Shown here one piece after another: positions 6,043-16,330 of a stretch of DNA of 16,330 bases; within the stretch, counting starts at the first letter, position 1, and each line of letters opens with the position of its first letter. The DNA comes from a virus (lineage: Duplodnaviria > Heunggongvirae > Uroviricota > Caudoviricetes). Location of the stretch: positions 1-16,330 of the IMG/VR virus record IMGVR_UViG_2684622620_000010; one strand, 5' to 3'. The position numbers and the translations under genes were made by a program. Under the pieces are notes generated by a model. It saw only the letters and a list, made by a program, of their open reading frames with translations. It was not told where the DNA came from and searched no databases.

Positions 6043-8265
6043 ATGACCATTTTTAACGGCTTGTTAGAAGCGAAAAAAGGCGCGCTCAAAAACGGCGCGA
6101 TCCCGGCGCTGGCCATCGCCATCGACGCCCCTAACAAAAAAGTTGCCGAGAACATCATCATCGGCAAATTGTGGGAAGCCTACCCTGACCACGGCGACAA
6201 CTATTTCAAACCTAAAATCTGGGAAGATGCCCCGGGCCAACCGCGCCCAGGCGTTGGTGAGTTTGATGAGACGTTCGCCACAGAACACAGTTTTGATGGC
6301 GAAAAATGGGTAGTTAACACCCCCGTTGTAGATAGCGGTTCAGCAGATATCGCACAGGTTAACGACCTGATGAAACTGCCGGCTCGTGAACGATTCGCCG
6401 CCGTTCTGCTGTTCAGCCACGACGCCAACGAAGTCAACAGTGAATTGCTTGCGCAGACGCGTGAATACCTGGAGATGCTCGACAACAGTGATACTGACAG
6501 TGAGGATGAGGTTGACGCGTTTAACCGCATCGTTCTTGATGCCATGGTGGCGTGTAAGCCCATCGAGTACATGCATATTGCTGGATTGAATAATCTGGTA
6601 CATGCAATTTTGGCAAGTTGCGATACCCAGGAACAAAACCCGACCAGTTGGACTATCTCCAAATTTATAAAAAAATGGGTAGAGAATCCCGGTAAACGCG
6701 ATGAAATGCTGCCGGAGGTAAAACCAGAAACAGCATCCGCACGTCCTTACAAACAGACTCACGCTACACTGGATCGTGAAATTGCCTGCGCTCTGTTACC
6801 CGTTGGCCCGGAAAAAATCACCCCCAGCGTCCTGAAAGCGGCAGACGAAATAATCAGCCAGGATCGGGAGGATTTTAAACGCTGGTCAATGGCCTTGCGC
6901 ACAACGGATCAGATCCTTTCCTATGACCGGGCATCCGTATTCGGTGTCGTTCAGAGTGCCCCCGCAAAAGACACGTACCATTTCCCGCAATCCCTGCGCA
7001 GTCACATCGACAACTGGCTGCAAGCTAACGGGCAGCGTGATGCAAATGCTGTTGAAGAGAAGCCAAAGGACGCAGCACCAAAGGGTGATGTAAAAGTCAC
7101 CAACCACGGCGGCGGGCGATTCTCAATCGATGGGATGATGTCAGAACCCCCCTCAAATCAGGGCGAAAAAAGCGAAGCAGCAAATGCTGGAGAGCGTAGT
7201 TTGCAGCAGTTGCGTGAGCAGTTTGTCACGCCCCGCCATGTGTATGGCGTACCAGAAAATAACGCCGTATCACAGCGGGAATCTGTAACTGTTATCCTGG
7301 AAGAAGAGACTCCTCCACAAGAAAAACTTAGCGAGCAGGTAAAAGACCTGGTGCAGAACGTTGACGCTCTGGTTGAGCGGATCCATACCGAGGAAAAAAC
7401 TGCATCAATTCGCATGGAGCATTATCTGTCAGCAATGAATGATGACCAGAGCAAAGCAAATTTGGCTATCTGGAATCGCGTTCAGCGGACCGATCCTGCG
7501 TATGTCACACATAATGATTACGGTGCAGGACTGCACTCCATACGCGCACAATATATTTTGATGCGTGCGACTGAAGTGCTGGGAATGGAAGGCATTGGTT
7601 GGGGAGTTGAAATCAAGGAGGAGCGAGTGGATCGCGGTGTGCCATTACTTGAACCTATACAGGATCAGACAGGGAAAATTATTGGACAAAAACCTGTCAG
7701 GGATGCTGACGGCTCCCTGTTCTGCCTGTCAGTACACACCATCCGGATAGATCTCTGGTACGTCTGGAACGGAGTGAAAGGATTTATTCCGTCATATGGC
7801 CACACGGATTACATATCAAAAAATAACAAAGGGGCACTGGTAATGGAAAAAGAGGCCTCCAAAAAGTCTCTTACTGATGCCACCGTCAAAGCACTATCTC
7901 ATCTGGGATTTGCGGCAGATGTTTATATGGATATGCATAACGATAGTGCCTACACCGCCGAGCTGAATACAGAATACGGTATTAAGAAGGCAAGCGAGAA
8001 AGCAGAGGATGCTACCCGACTGCGTGAAGAACTGGATGAACGACTCTCAGGTGTTGCCAAAACACTGGCTGCAGCCGTAACCCCCAATGAAGTTAATAAA
8101 GTCTATGGCCTTATTGCGCGGGAAGTAGAAGTTCACCGCAAAGCCGCAGAATCCAAAGGTGATAAGGAGTATTCAACTTATCTTGGTTCGCGCCTGCGCC
8201 GTTTGAATGAAATCAAAACCGAACGCCTCGCCGCTCTCGCCGCCGCACAGGAGCAAACAGCATGA
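6043..8265 (+). CDS. Large recombination protein with a C-terminal Rad52/Erf-superfamily annealing domain and an unassigned N-terminal half
   Basis: 740-aa ORF. Residues about 585-625 (YISKNNKGALVMEKEASKKSLTDATVKALSHLGFAAD) resemble the Rad52 N-domain signature ([29 protein letters not shown]). Residues about 335-460 look like a low-complexity linker; the first ~330 aa match nothing I recognise. Start has SD GAGGAAAGACC then ATG. Confidence 0.6.
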   Translation: MTIFNGLLEAKKGALKNGAIPALAIAIDAPNKKVAENIIIGKLWEAYPDHGDNYFKPKIWEDAPGQPRPGVGEFDETFATEHSFDGEKWVVNTPVVDSGSADIAQVNDLMKLPARERFAAVLLFSHDANEVNSELLAQTREYLEMLDNSDTDSEDEVDAFNRIVLDAMVACKPIEYMHIAGLNNLVHAILASCDTQEQNPTSWTISKFIKKWVENPGKRDEMLPEVKPETASARPYKQTHATLDREIACALLPVGPEKITPSVLKAADEIISQDREDFKRWSMALRTTDQILSYDRASVFGVVQSAPAKDTYHFPQSLRSHIDNWLQANGQRDANAVEEKPKDAAPKGDVKVTNHGGGRFSIDGMMSEPPSNQGEKSEAANAGERSLQQLREQFVTPRHVYGVPENNAVSQRESVTVILEEETPPQEKLSEQVKDLVQNVDALVERIHTEEKTASIRMEHYLSAMNDDQSKANLAIWNRVQRTDPAYVTHNDYGAGLHSIRAQYILMRATEVLGMEGIGWGVEIKEERVDRGVPLLEPIQDQTGKIIGQKPVRDADGSLFCLSVHTIRIDLWYVWNGVKGFIPSYGHTDYISKNNKGALVMEKEASKKSLTDATVKALSHLGFAADVYMDMHNDSAYTAELNTEYGIKKASEKAEDATRLREELDERLSGVAKTLAAAVTPNEVNKVYGLIAREVEVHRKAAESKGDKEYSTYLGSRLRRLNEIKTERLAALAAAQEQTA

Positions 8266-8831
8266 GCACCGCTATCGCTATTGCAAAAGAATACGCCAGC
8301 CTGATTGACCTGCTGGAAACCTCCGACGAACTGACGCCAGAGATGATCGCCGACACACTTGAAGGTATGGAAGGAGAACTGGGAGACAAACTGGACGCCA
8401 TGATGGTCATCTGCCGCAATTTACAGGGCAATGCCAGTACCTGCGCTGAAGAAATGTCTCGCCTGGCTACCCGTAAGACGTCCTTTGAAGGCAAGGAAAA
8501 AGCAATTCGGAAGCATATGCTCGCCTGCCTGCAAGCTGCTGGCCTGGATAAACTAAAAACCGCAAAAAACACATTTACTGATGCACAGGGGGCTATCCGG
8601 GTAATTATCGATAGCAAAGATAAGATCCCGGATGAGTATGAAGGCGTGTCACTTGTTGATGTAGAAACGGTTATTACACCAAACAAGCGAGCCATTAAAG
8701 AAGTGATTGAATCTGCGGAGGCGGTTGCCGCCGAAATACTGGCGCGTGGAGAAACACCACCAGCCGAGTTATTAAACCCGGTACCAGGCGCACATCTGGA
8801 ACGCGGCGAACGTTCGCTGAGGGTACGCTAA
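8262..8831 (+). CDS. Siphovirus Gp157-like protein (recombination-module accessory protein)
   Basis: 189-aa acidic coiled-coil protein (EMIADTLEGMEGELGDKLDAMMVICRNL...) resembling the Gp157 family that often follows Erf/Sak genes. ATGA overlap with the upstream gene. Confidence 0.55.
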   Translation: MSTAIAIAKEYASLIDLLETSDELTPEMIADTLEGMEGELGDKLDAMMVICRNLQGNASTCAEEMSRLATRKTSFEGKEKAIRKHMLACLQAAGLDKLKTAKNTFTDAQGAIRVIIDSKDKIPDEYEGVSLVDVETVITPNKRAIKEVIESAEAVAAEILARGETPPAELLNPVPGAHLERGERSLRVR

Positions 8832-9013
8832 TGCTTAAACTCACATTAAAGCGTGGTGACGCGGTTCACCTGGTACTTGCCGATGGTACCAATGGCATTA
8901 TTGAAGCACGGAGTCGCTGCGAACTTGGGCTACACCTGCCAGAAAACATTAAGGTCACGCGGGAGAAATCGGCATTCCCCCCACCAGAACTGATTACGCC
9001 TAATCAGAAATAA
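8831..9013 (+). CDS. CsrA-like small protein (60 aa)
   Basis: An ungapped alignment with E. coli CsrA (61 aa) keeps M1-L2-x-L4-T5, G9, G33-x3-P37 and V42-x-R44-E45, plus conservative hydrophobic matches. Start overlaps the upstream stop (TAATG). Confidence 0.45.
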   Translation: MLKLTLKRGDAVHLVLADGTNGIIEARSRCELGLHLPENIKVTREKSAFPPPELITPNQK

Positions 9014-9062
9014 AAACTCACCATCGCTAGCATTGCGATTCACCAGTAACAGGAGGATCACA

Positions 9063-9257
9063 ATGCTGCGATGGCAACCGGGAGCAACTCTGCTCTCCGC
9101 ATTTGATATCAAAATTGGCCGACTGTCGGCCAGCGTCAGGAAACAGGCCTTGACCGAGTCTGATATTGCCCGTGCCTGCCATGTGGCAGATGACGCAATA
9201 AGCTACATAATGAGGAAAGACCATGAACGATCTGTTAAACGACGAGGAACTGGTTGA
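9063..9257 (+). CDS. Hypothetical small protein (64 aa)
   Basis: ATG at 9063 preceded by AGGAGG with 6-nt spacing; the ORF-track start at 9033 is a TTG. Overlaps the excisionase start by 35 nt in another frame. Confidence 0.4.
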   Translation: MLRWQPGATLLSAFDIKIGRLSASVRKQALTESDIARACHVADDAISYIMRKDHERSVKRRGTG

Positions 9258-9438
9258 ACTGACCGGCTACCAGTTCCCGTCAAAACAATGCGGCGCCCTG
9301 ACCCGTGCCGGGATCTCTTATGTAAAACGCCGCGATGGGCGACCTCGCGTCACATGGACGCATGTAAACGCTGCGCTGTCCGGAGCAAGGTCCGTGCAGA
9401 TTGCCGAAGAAGAACAACCAAATTTTGATGCAATCTGA
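9223..9438 (+). CDS. Excisionase-like protein (DUF4224-type Xis)
   Basis: 71-aa ORF directly upstream of, and TGATG-overlapping, the integrase gene, with the motif ELTGYQFPSKQCGALTRAGISYVKRRDGRPRVTWTHV typical of small phage excisionases. Confidence 0.6.
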   Translation: MNDLLNDEELVELTGYQFPSKQCGALTRAGISYVKRRDGRPRVTWTHVNAALSGARSVQIAEEEQPNFDAI

Positions 9439-10466
9439 TGAGCAGAACACGAAAAAGCGCGGAAGATAATAAGCTGCCACCCCGCGTTTATAAAAACAAA
9501 TACAGCTATTATTTCAAACCAACGCCCCGAGAGTGTATTACGCTGGGTAAAATTAATGATCTGTCAATTGCTCAGGTATGGGTGAAATACGAAGAGATCC
9601 TGAATGATGCTATTGATGTCATGACGTTCAGTAAACTCTGGAACAAATTTCTCAACAGCACCTACTATCTGGAACTCGGTCAGCGTACACAAAAGGATTA
9701 TCTGCAGCACCAGAAGAAATTACTCGCCGCGTTCGGGAAAATGAAAGCCGACAACATAAAACCTGCTCACGTGCGGCTGTATATGGACAAGCGGGGGCTG
9801 AAAAGCAAAACACAGGCGAACCATGAAAAAGCCAGTATGTCGCGAGTATTCCGCTGGGGATACGAACGCGGATACGTAAAAGGGAATCCATGCCAGGGCG
9901 TCAGTAAATTTTCCCTCAAGCCCCGCGACTACTATTTCACGGACGAGGAATATATCGCAATTTATCAGGAGGCATCTCCCGTTTTACAGTGCGCGATGGA
10001 GATCGCCTATCTGTGCGCCACGCGGATCGGCGATATACGAAAGCTGACGTGGGATCAGGTTATGAGTAAGGGTTTGTTTATCCAACAGGGTAAGACTGGC
10101 AAAAAGCAGATCAAACAGTATTCAGAGCGACTGACGTTCGCACTTGAGCAGGCGAAATCGTTGGGAGGACAACATTTCGTGGTCTGTAACAAATATGGCG
10201 GGCAATACAGTTATACCGGATTTAACGATATCTGGCGTAAAGCCAGGGCGGCGGCAAGTGAAAAGCTGGGCTACCCGATTACGGGAACGTTTCACGATTT
10301 AAAAGCGAAGGGGATCTCAGACTACGACGGAAGCAGTAAAGAAAAGCAGTTGTTCTCTGGTCACAAAACTGAGGCGCAGGTGCTGACGTATGATCGCAAA
10401 CCTGCAGTTTCTCCGACTCTGGATATTCCGGTGCTGGATGTCACAGTTCTGAGCAGAAACCCGTGA
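9438..10466 (+). CDS. Tyrosine integrase (lambda Int family)
   Basis: 342-aa ORF with the C-terminal catalytic region TFHDLKAKGISDY...SGHKTEAQVLTYDRK, aligning to lambda Int TFHELRSLSARLY...GHKSDTMASQYRD (from memory). Adjacent to the tRNA-Ser 3' end. Confidence 0.85.
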   Translation: MSRTRKSAEDNKLPPRVYKNKYSYYFKPTPRECITLGKINDLSIAQVWVKYEEILNDAIDVMTFSKLWNKFLNSTYYLELGQRTQKDYLQHQKKLLAAFGKMKADNIKPAHVRLYMDKRGLKSKTQANHEKASMSRVFRWGYERGYVKGNPCQGVSKFSLKPRDYYFTDEEYIAIYQEASPVLQCAMEIAYLCATRIGDIRKLTWDQVMSKGLFIQQGKTGKKQIKQYSERLTFALEQAKSLGGQHFVVCNKYGGQYSYTGFNDIWRKARAAASEKLGYPITGTFHDLKAKGISDYDGSSKEKQLFSGHKTEAQVLTYDRKPAVSPTLDIPVLDVTVLSRNP

Positions 10467-12020: not shown

Positions 12021-15020
<3,000 letters not shown>

Positions 15021-15074
15021 TGAACCGCCCCGGAAATCCTGGAGACTAAACTCCCTGAGAAAGAGGTAAACAGG

Positions 15075-15401
15075 ATGACTAAAAATACTCGTTTTTCCCC
15101 CGAAGTCCGTCAGCGGGCGATTCGTATGGTTCTGGAAAGTCAGGATGAATATGACTCACAGTGGGCGGCAATTTGTTCCATTGCCCCAAAGATTGGCTGT
15201 ACGCCGGAGACTCTGCGTGTCTGGGTTCGCCAGCATGAGCGGGATACCGGGGGCGGTGATGGTGGGCTCACCAGCGCTGAACGTCAGCGTCTGAAAGAGC
15301 TGGAACGTGAAAATCGTGAACTGCGCCGCAGTAACGATATCCTTCGCCAGGCTTCCGCTTATTTTGCGAAGGCGGAGTTCGACCGCCTCTGGAAAAAATG
15401 A
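15075..15401 (+). CDS. IS3-family transposase OrfA (copy B)
   Basis: Identical 108-aa translation to 55-381. Confidence 0.9.
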
Positions 15402-16288
15402 TGCCACTGCTGGATAAGCTGCGTGAGCAGTACGGGGTCGGACCGGTATGCAGCGAACTGCATATTGCCCCGTCAACGTATTACCATTGTCAGCAACAGC
15501 GACATCATCCGGATAAACGCAGTGCCCGTGCGCAGCACGACGACTGGCTGAAGAGAGAGATACAGCGCGTATACGATGAAAATCATCAGGTGTACGGTGT
15601 GCGTAAAGTCTGGCGTCAGTTGTTACGGGAAGGAATCAGGGTGGCCAGATGTACAGTGGCACGTCTCATGGCGGTTATGGGACTTGCCGGTGTTCTCCGG
15701 GGTAAAAAGGTCCGTACGACCATCAGCCGGAAAGCCGTTGCCGCAGGCGACCGCGTAAACCGTCAGTTCGTGGCAGAACGACCTGACCAGCTGTGGGTGG
15801 CTGATTTTACTTACGTCAGCACATGGCAGGGCTTCGTCTATGTGGCGTTTATCATTGATGTGTTTGCCGGATACATCGTGGGGTGGCGGGTCTCATCGTC
15901 TATGGAAACGACATTCGTGCTGGATGCGCTGGAGCAGGCGTTGTGGGCCCGTCGTCCGTCTGGCACCATCCATCACAGCGATAAAGGCTCTCAGTATGTG
16001 TCACTGGCCTATACGGAGCGACTAAAAGAAGCCGGATTACTGGCATCAACAGGGAGTACAGGCGACTCGTATGACAACGCGATGGCTGAGAGCATCAATG
16101 GTCTTTACAAAGCGGAGGTAATACACCGTAAGAGCTGGAAAAACCGTGCAGAAGTGGAACTGGCCACACTAACGTGGGTGGACTGGTATAACAATCGACG
16201 ATTGCTGGGAAGGCTGGGCCATACTCCTCCGGCAGAAGCAGAAAAAGCTTATTATGCTTCCATCGGAAACGATGATCTGGCAGCCTGA
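15398..16288 (+). CDS. IS3-family transposase OrfB (copy B)
   Basis: Identical 296-aa translation to 378-1268. Confidence 0.9.
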
Positions 16289-16330
16289 GTTCACAGATAA
16301 AACACTCTCCAGGAAACCCGGGGCGGTTCA

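Follow-up and report, generated by a model that had tools for sequence, protein, structure and literature searches.

ORF60 is a 60-residue protein encoded at positions 8831-9013 (+ strand) of IMG/VR virus record IMGVR_UViG_2684622620_000010, a 16,330-nucleotide (nt) stretch of Caudoviricetes DNA referred to here as the window. It is the product of a real, conserved gene, and its family profile resembles that of a group of divergent phage CsrA-like regulators in a manner that is statistically specific but partial. ORF60 fails every curated CsrA criterion and is not a functional duplicate of the host regulator CsrA. A possible place among the very remote members of the CsrA superfamily is defensible, and the chances that ORF60 is a very divergent offshoot of the CsrA/Rsm proteins, linked to them by remote homology, are close to evenly balanced. 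Directly 3' of the gene lies a conserved translational-occlusion hairpin.

ORF60 and its family

The open reading frame (ORF) of 60 amino acids (aa) reported in the initial annotation is borne out by translation, and its product is MLKLTLKRGDAVHLVLADGTNGIIEARSRCELGLHLPENIKVTREKSAFPPPELITPNQK (translation of 8831-9013, + strand). The ATG overlaps the stop codon of the preceding Gp157-family gene by one base (TAATG), and RefSeq labels the product 'hypothetical protein' (WP_000916333.1). The gene and its parts are as follows:

8831-9013, + strand: ORF60, a 60-aa all-beta protein of phrog_2482 (translation; PHROG match, E 5e-35; AlphaFold2, AF2)
8819-8823, + strand: Shine-Dalgarno sequence GAGGG of ORF60, read from the sequence, 7 nt before the ATG
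8993-9010, + strand: codons of the conserved C-terminal tail L54-I55-x-x-N58-Q59-K60 (46-sequence alignment)

The match to phrog_2482 (function unknown) is full length, residues 1-60 aligning with positions 1-61 of the 61-position profile (E 5.4e-35). The family comprises about 75 homologue clusters at 35-98 % identity, all of 56-67 aa, and the 46 full-length homologues in the alignment used throughout (A5) hold length and frame at 30-98 % identity. The exact ORF60 sequence is present on at least 1000 contigs. Where the organism is named, the hosts are Enterobacterales (Escherichia, Salmonella, Klebsiella, Citrobacter, Serratia, Pectobacterium/Brenneria and Sodalis), and two deposited phages labelled Stenotrophomonas also bear a gene of the family. 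Six residues are invariant among the 46 sequences (M1, G19, I24, P37, I55 and N58) and seven more are at least 90 % conserved (L2, G9, D18, G22, R29, Q59 and K60). The tail is especially constant, with I55 and N58 in 46/46, Q59 in 45/46, K60 in 42/46 and L54 in 38/46. Because length and frame are conserved across homologues and the synteny is fixed (see below), ORF60 is a real gene, and conservation and synteny together rule out a spurious reading frame. Two database members of the family, P0023 and P0030, look like frameshifted copies, the middle part of P0030 matching a +1-frame ORF at 8853-8993; both look like sequencing errors or pseudogenes rather than isoforms.

Resemblance to divergent phage CsrA-like regulators

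The similarity noted at the outset was a gapless alignment with Escherichia coli CsrA containing about 10 identities. Recomputed with a CsrA sequence confirmed by its match to PDB 1Y00 (E 8e-35), it contains exactly 10 (M1, L2, L4, T5, G9, G33, P37, V42, R44 and E45), or 17 % identity, and has Leu and Lys in place of R6 and R7, as had been described. In composition-preserving shuffles with Met1 fixed, the BLOSUM62 score of the pair was reached in 35/100,000 cases and the 10 identities in 985/100,000. The pair score therefore beats chance if the pair is named beforehand, but not after a choice among thousands of families.

A tblastn search of 50,697 phage records with E. coli CsrA found 88 records at E <= 1e-3, in which genuine phage CsrA homologues are 35-90 % identical to the query, and a weak tail of annotated 'CsrA-like regulators'. 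The existence of phage CsrA homologues, left in doubt by the initial annotation, is established by these 88 records and by a survey of viral CsrA in which PSI-BLAST, run to convergence, identified 30 phages including SopranoGao, Parlo and Bcep22 (PMC7366521); the ORF60 family, however, is not among them. Thirteen divergent proteins were taken for comparison: Pondi CsrA, Bcep22 gp54, DC1 gp46, GP4 gp04, Itty13, Parlo_062, SopranoGao_25, USP25_20, F116 p47 and four metagenomic sequences. Several of them start MLKLDIKPGE or MLKLSLKPGE, where ORF60 starts MLKLTLKRGD, and they too are without the R6/R7 pair. By test they are themselves CsrA family members, with hhalign values of 96-99.8 % against canonical CsrA (97.7 % for a nine-member podophage clade of the Bcep22/DC1/Parlo type). 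The Pfam CsrA cutoff is passed by 7/10 of the divergent proteins; SopranoGao_25 reaches 14 bits, and F116p47 and USP25_20 have no match, so that accepted CsrA members can fall where ORF60 falls.

Against these proteins the 46-sequence family gives high hhalign values, namely 93.6 % (P 2e-7) with the first five, 92.9 % (P 3.7e-7) with all 13, 85.7 % (P 5.4e-6) with the podophage clade alone and 90.1 % (P 1.6e-6) with a 30-sequence CsrA superfamily alignment. The signal holds as the ORF60 profile widens (92.5 % with alignments A2 and A3, 93.6 % with A5) and stays at 86-94 % in leave-one-out tests. Column-permutation nulls, including those that keep Met1 or Met1-Leu2 in place, do not exceed 20-24, whereas the observed score is 38, and eight control conserved families from the same loci give hhalign values of 4 % or less. 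In a decoy set of 857 ORFs, a hidden Markov model (HMM) of the divergent proteins ranks ORF60 family members next after the true CsrA-likes (E 6e-4 to 0.04, with noise from about E 1), and the ORF60 HMM has MT837633 and Bcep22 as its top non-members. The signal comes, in correct register, from residues 1-14 (score about 25) and 31-48 (15-17, P about 1e-3).

Agreement and disagreement with canonical CsrA

Canonical CsrA was represented by an alignment of phage-borne and enterobacterial copies taken from the data, supplemented with the sequences of six species. A word-indexed search with E. coli CsrA itself returned only sequences at least 88 % identical to it, too uniform for a diverse profile. 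CsrA (PF02599) is the only Pfam family that ORF60 matches, in register and along the full length. CsrA is likewise the commonest weak Pfam match in the family, found for 17/23 close and 11/46 wider members, with a best E of 9e-4 (residues 1-45 to 1-45). AF2 monomer models of ORF60, with predicted local distance difference test (pLDDT) scores of 78 and 89, contain five strands at residues 2-6, 11-15, 21-25, 30-34 and 41-45; the five strands of CsrA lie at nearly the same positions (PDB 1Y00).

CsrA contacts RNA through L2, L4, R6 and R7 on beta1 and V40, V42, R44 and I47 on beta5, as defined by mutagenesis. Replacement of Arg44 is cited in PMC7366521 as abolishing RNA binding. When CsrA positions are mapped by the ungapped register of both matching blocks and counted over the 46 family sequences, L2 is retained as Leu in 44/46 and L4 as a hydrophobic residue in 36/46. 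G9 is Gly in 45/46, P37 is Pro in 46/46, V40 is Val or Ile in 40/46, V42 is hydrophobic in 46/46, R44 is Arg in 39/46 and E45 is Glu or Gln in 35/46. On this alignment the beta5 face with the critical arginine of CsrA is largely retained; the beta1 arginines and the C-terminal helix are not.

Other observations weigh against a CsrA origin. At the position of R6, Arg occurs in 0/46 sequences and Leu in 31/46; at that of R7, Arg occurs in 2/46 and Lys in 25/46; the residue corresponding to I47 is not hydrophobic in the family, and the C-terminal helix of CsrA is absent from it. The AF2 models contain no helix, residues 46-60 forming a Pro-rich coil, and the LIxxNQK tail has no counterpart in CsrA. 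The Pfam CsrA match of ORF60 reaches 13 bits (E 0.1) against a cutoff of 27, and five of the most distant family members have no Pfam CsrA match at all. A search of NCBIfam with ORF60 returned no match, neither the ORF60 sequence nor the family profile found any CsrA chain in the PDB, and an HMMER search of 1.84 billion representatives with the family profile gave 17 matches, none identifiable as CsrA. A fold search with the first AF2 monomer model found no CsrA chain and no significant SH3 or other fold; a caveat is that a monomer was compared here, whereas CsrA is an intertwined homodimer whose beta1 and beta5 pair with the partner chain. True remote homology normally strengthens, rather than fades, as a family profile widens. 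Against canonical CsrA, however, hhalign falls from 12-20 % (close family) through 3 % (all 46 sequences) to 0.6 % (only the distant members).

The link to the divergent phage proteins has weaknesses of its own. Residues 15-31 contribute nothing to it, and dropping Met1 lowers hhalign to 68-86 %. The N-terminal block has a second counterpart in the GD hairpin of AbrB/MazE (hhalign 57 % over 21 columns, residues 4-25) and may be a generic hairpin motif. The remote-homology clustering of PHROGs separates phrog_2482 from the CsrA-like phrogs 8397, 9500 and 5527, and MT837633 matches phrog_2482 only at E 0.18. In tblastn searches (E up to 10) with CsrA, MT837633 and Bcep22 gp54, no ORF60-bearing phage was listed, and a search of viral contigs with MT837633 alone yielded no relatives. 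Phage ZF40, which bears an ORF60 homologue, is missing from the 30 phages of the published survey (PMC7366521). The designation of the product as CsrA-like in the initial annotation is thus partly borne out: it keeps its full-length, in-register contact with the Pfam model and the 86-93 % hhalign values against divergent phage CsrA-likes, but the Pfam score lies below threshold and the searched monomer model did not recover the CsrA fold.

Genomic setting

The window is an arm of a lambdoid prophage adjoining tRNA-Ser and mtfA in E. coli. Its + strand encodes, in order, a CI-type repressor, a phrog_2479 protein, a RecE-like exonuclease, Gp157, ORF60, a 64-aa ORF, Xis (DUF4224) and Int, and the opposite strand carries YdaS/YdaT-type and replication genes. 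The placement of ORF60 in a prophage recombination/early operon was therefore correct, with the exonuclease and Gp157 upstream and Xis and Int downstream. The neighbouring genes are:

5692-6012, + strand: 106-aa phrog_2479 protein, first gene of the conserved block (PHROG match; same position in related loci)
6043-8265, + strand: 740-aa RecE-like exonuclease, phrog_2489 (PHROG match; central segment like exodeoxyribonuclease VIII)
8262-8831, + strand: Gp157-family gene (PF05565; phrog_253 'Mu Gam-like end protection'), always directly upstream of ORF60 (Pfam, PHROG)
9063-9257, + strand: conserved 64-aa ORF, phrog_27062 (PHROG), overlapping the start of xis and unannotated in the RefSeq record examined
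9223-9438, + strand: excisionase-like DUF4224 gene, xis (domain match)
9438-10466, + strand: tyrosine integrase gene, int (RefSeq, PHROG)

The exonuclease aligns with phrog_2489 from end to end, and its match to exodeoxyribonuclease VIII (RecE) lies at residues 230-335. This 'exonuclease family protein' has no match in the Pfam copy scanned, and its homologues bear precomputed YdfE_N, YdfE_C or Exonuc_VIII matches. No RecT- or Erf-type annealing protein was matched among the block genes scanned, and a literature search combining Gp157, exonuclease and prophage found nothing useful. In 14/14 genomic contexts read, the ORF60 homologue has Gp157 and the large exonuclease on its upstream side and xis/int on its downstream side. 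The downstream xis/int pair belongs to three unrelated types (DUF4224, lambda-type Exc with an arm-binding Int, and HTH_17). Since the family stays beside the exonuclease and Gp157 while the xis/int type varies, the gene travels with the exonuclease/Gp157 block and not with one integration module.

Elsewhere in the window, the roughly 1-kb segment that separates the repressor gene from the gene of the phrog_2479 protein (4696-5691) is without an annotated gene in the related RefSeq record, and the only two ORFs tested in it (4815-5036 and 5175-5381) have no PHROG match. Copies of an IS3-family insertion sequence (IS), with ORFs of 108 and 296 aa, occupy both window ends (1-1310 and 15021-16330). 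They lie in direct orientation with a spacing of 15,020 bp and are identical over at least the first 300 bases. One abuts a truncated DnaB-like prophage helicase gene (260-aa ORF at 1308-2090, against a 1392-bp gene in strain TUM11353) and the other a truncated yeeJ (12208-15069). The flanking IS copies and truncated genes suggest that the rest of the prophage was lost through an IS-mediated event.

The downstream hairpin

Between ORF60 and xis, the transcript contains the following element:

9024-9071, + strand: conserved RNA hairpin pairing the Shine-Dalgarno sequence and start codon of the next gene (structure prediction, 12/12 loci)

The hairpin starts 13 bases after the first base of the ORF60 stop codon (11 nt downstream of the stop) and pairs both the AGGAGG Shine-Dalgarno sequence (9051-9056) and the AUG (9063-9065) of the 64-aa ORF. 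In 12 related loci a homologue of this ORF, 62-72 aa long, is called. Pairing involves the AUG in 11-12/12 loci, and likewise spacer positions -1 to -5, each with 3-4 pair types and hence compensatory changes. Minimum free energy z-scores range from -3.0 to -7.0, and the hairpin is missing in the one locus without the small ORF. An Rfam scan of 8700-9500 gave no family match, only chance sub-threshold ones. In most loci the apical 3' side reads A(C/A)GGAG, which as a motif fits an ANGGA-type CsrA site but is equally a plain Shine-Dalgarno sequence, and is thus non-discriminating. Melting of the hairpin by a terminating ribosome (coupling) is unlikely, as the stem begins 11-18 nt past the stop codon of the ORF60 family member across loci, which, given the footprint of the ribosome, is probably too far.

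Interpretation and alternative explanations

ORF60 is the last member of a fixed block (phrog_2479, exonuclease, Gp157, ORF60) located distally in the early-left operon of Rac-like lambdoid prophages of Enterobacterales. In the favoured reading, its nearest relatives would be the 'CsrA-like regulators' of the Bcep22, DC1 and Parlo type, not host CsrA. Two edge segments would have been retained: beta1-beta2, with the pattern MLKLxLKxGD-x-h-x-h, and beta4-beta5, with L-x-h-x-h-P37-x-x-V40-K-h42-T-R44-E, which in CsrA forms the RNA-binding surface including the critical Arg44. The middle of the domain would have been remodelled and the C-terminal helix exchanged for the LIxxNQK tail, which would dock a partner, possibly Gp157 or the exonuclease. 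Such a protein may bind single-stranded RNA as a small oligomer and act on the phage's own early-left transcript. The hairpin 11 nt past its stop codon, which is predicted to lock both the AUG and the ribosome-binding site of the following ORF and has A(C/A)GGAG at its apex, is the obvious candidate target. A more specific proposal makes ORF60 a new and highly diverged RNA-binding protein of the CsrA type, present in a widespread group of enterobacterial prophages and dedicated to this hairpin, binding its apex or 5' arm to open or lock the ribosome-binding site and AUG and so forming a translational switch that links the recombination block to excision control; we consider this unlikely.

The strongest alternative holds that ORF60 is an unrelated compact beta protein, of an SH3-like or small-sandwich type, that docks through its LIxxNQK tail and is an accessory or adaptor subunit in the processing of DNA ends by the RecE-like exonuclease and Gp157, and that its likeness to CsrA is convergent and due to generic beta-hairpin motifs. 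This is a distinct possibility, if somewhat short of even. It accounts for the confident compact AF2 monomer and the lack of a CsrA match to the searched model, for the constant company of Gp157 and the exonuclease beside changing xis/int types, and for the position of the most conserved residues (D18, G19, G22, I24, R29, I55, N58 and Q59), which lie outside the CsrA-similar parts. The fading of the likeness to canonical CsrA with profile diversity points the same way, as does the 46-member scan in which Pfam SH3_2 is matched about as weakly as CsrA (best E 6e-4), a further observation unfavourable to a CsrA origin. The PHROG numbers 2479, 2482 and 2489 are adjacent, indicating similar family sizes if PHROGs are numbered by size. 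However, convergence fits poorly with the specificity of the profile likeness to the divergent CsrA-likes (86-93 % against at most 4 % for controls, with reciprocal best matches) and with the collinearity of the two matching blocks, which stay in register across the entire domain. P37 and R44 are conserved as well. Moreover, the searched monomer model has no significant structural match to SH3 or any other fold.

Assignment of ORF60 to the swapped-hairpin DNA-binding proteins of the AbrB/MazE/SpoVT type is far less credible. UniRef names the homologue P0171 'AbrB/MazE/SpoVT family DNA-binding domain-containing protein', and the 57 % hhalign value against an AbrB/MazE alignment (residues 4-25) probably explains this label. 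That match, however, amounts to 21 columns and one GD hairpin. Pfam AbrB/MazE is matched by none of the 46 members even at E 10, NCBIfam gives no match for P0171, no helix is predicted between the strands, and the order of motifs is reversed relative to the AbrB domain.

That ORF60 is a functional phage copy of CsrA with the same GGA targets, which titrates or hijacks the host Csr network as the initial annotation proposed, is most improbable and finds no support: R44, P37 and the beta5 pattern are retained and genuine phage CsrA homologues exist, but those copies are 35-90 % identical to CsrA and pass Pfam easily, whereas ORF60 is only 17 % identical, never has Arg at position 6, has it at position 7 in 2/46 family members, lacks a hydrophobic residue at position 47 and the C-terminal helix, and gives 3 % in hhalign against canonical CsrA.

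Significance and comparison with known systems

If ORF60 is a diverged CsrA-superfamily protein, curated models overlook one branch of the CsrA fold, which occurs in prophages of E. coli (at least 1000 contigs, O103 isolates among them), Salmonella, Klebsiella, Serratia and Pectobacterium, and the set of phage post-transcriptional regulators becomes wider and gains a ready candidate RNA target. If it is not, the case is a useful warning that two short beta-hairpin motifs can produce a full-length, in-register match with 10 identities to a regulator of 61 residues. On both readings, the conserved block of exonuclease, Gp157 and ORF60 and the hairpin that sequesters the start codon are tangible, testable features of a prophage early region that has received little study. 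Among the new leads, the most tangible are this hairpin and the unannotated ORF.

The closest parallels are the divergent phage CsrA-likes (phrog_8397 and phrog_9500) represented by Bcep22 gp54, DC1 gp46, Ralstonia GP4 gp04, Serratia Parlo_062, F116 p47 and Escherichia phage Pondi CsrA. Like ORF60, they are phage-encoded proteins of 60-70 aa with an MLKL-x-[IL]-[KR]-x-G-[DE] start followed by an alternating hydrophobic strand, no Arg-Arg at positions 6 and 7, an L-x-h-x-h-[AP]-x-x-V-x-I-x-R block and a short or degenerate C-terminal part. However, there is no pairwise BLAST match between them and ORF60, and the middle third is unrelated, ORF60 having D18-G19-x-x-G22 where they have a G-D turn and a K-S-G loop. 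ORF60 also differs in its conserved LIxxNQK tail, its occurrence in temperate prophages beside RecE/Gp157 and its separate PHROG.

CsrA, RsmA and RsmE (PF02599; PDB 1Y00, 2BTI, 1VPZ and 2JPP) share with ORF60 the 10 ungapped identities and have five strands at positions near those predicted for it, but ORF60 has no C-terminal helix and no R6, scores under every curated threshold and gives 3-20 % in hhalign. The genuine phage CsrA proteins (F116 gp24, phi297 gp21, Vibrio phage VvAW1 gp26 and Providencia phage PSTCR8lys; PMC7366521) are 57-81 % identical to E. coli CsrA and annotated as such. Their genes, like that of ORF60, are small and belong to the early-left operons of temperate phages, in some cases with an exonuclease or RecT gene nearby, but ORF60 is not detected from them. 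In VvAW1 (3403-4213) the CsrA homologue overlaps a DEDD exonuclease gene at the end of the latter, which loosely parallels the position of ORF60. Pseudomonas phage F116 has two genes of CsrA type: besides the divergent p47 there is gp24, whose aligned part is 60 % identical to E. coli CsrA. A paper on TldR and CsrA deals with chromosomal csrA-tldR loci and is not relevant. With AbrB/MazE/SpoVT proteins ORF60 shares the GD-type beta-hairpin L-x-x-G-D-x-h-x-h-x-x-D-G-x-x-I; the match is only local, and ORF60 differs in having no helix and in lacking the first hairpin in the expected order. Should the link to CsrA fail, ORF60 is nothing out of the ordinary, a phage protein of unknown function. 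Phages were already known to encode CsrA homologues, and should the link hold, ORF60 would add to them a new variant, highly diverged and set apart by its tail and genomic niche.

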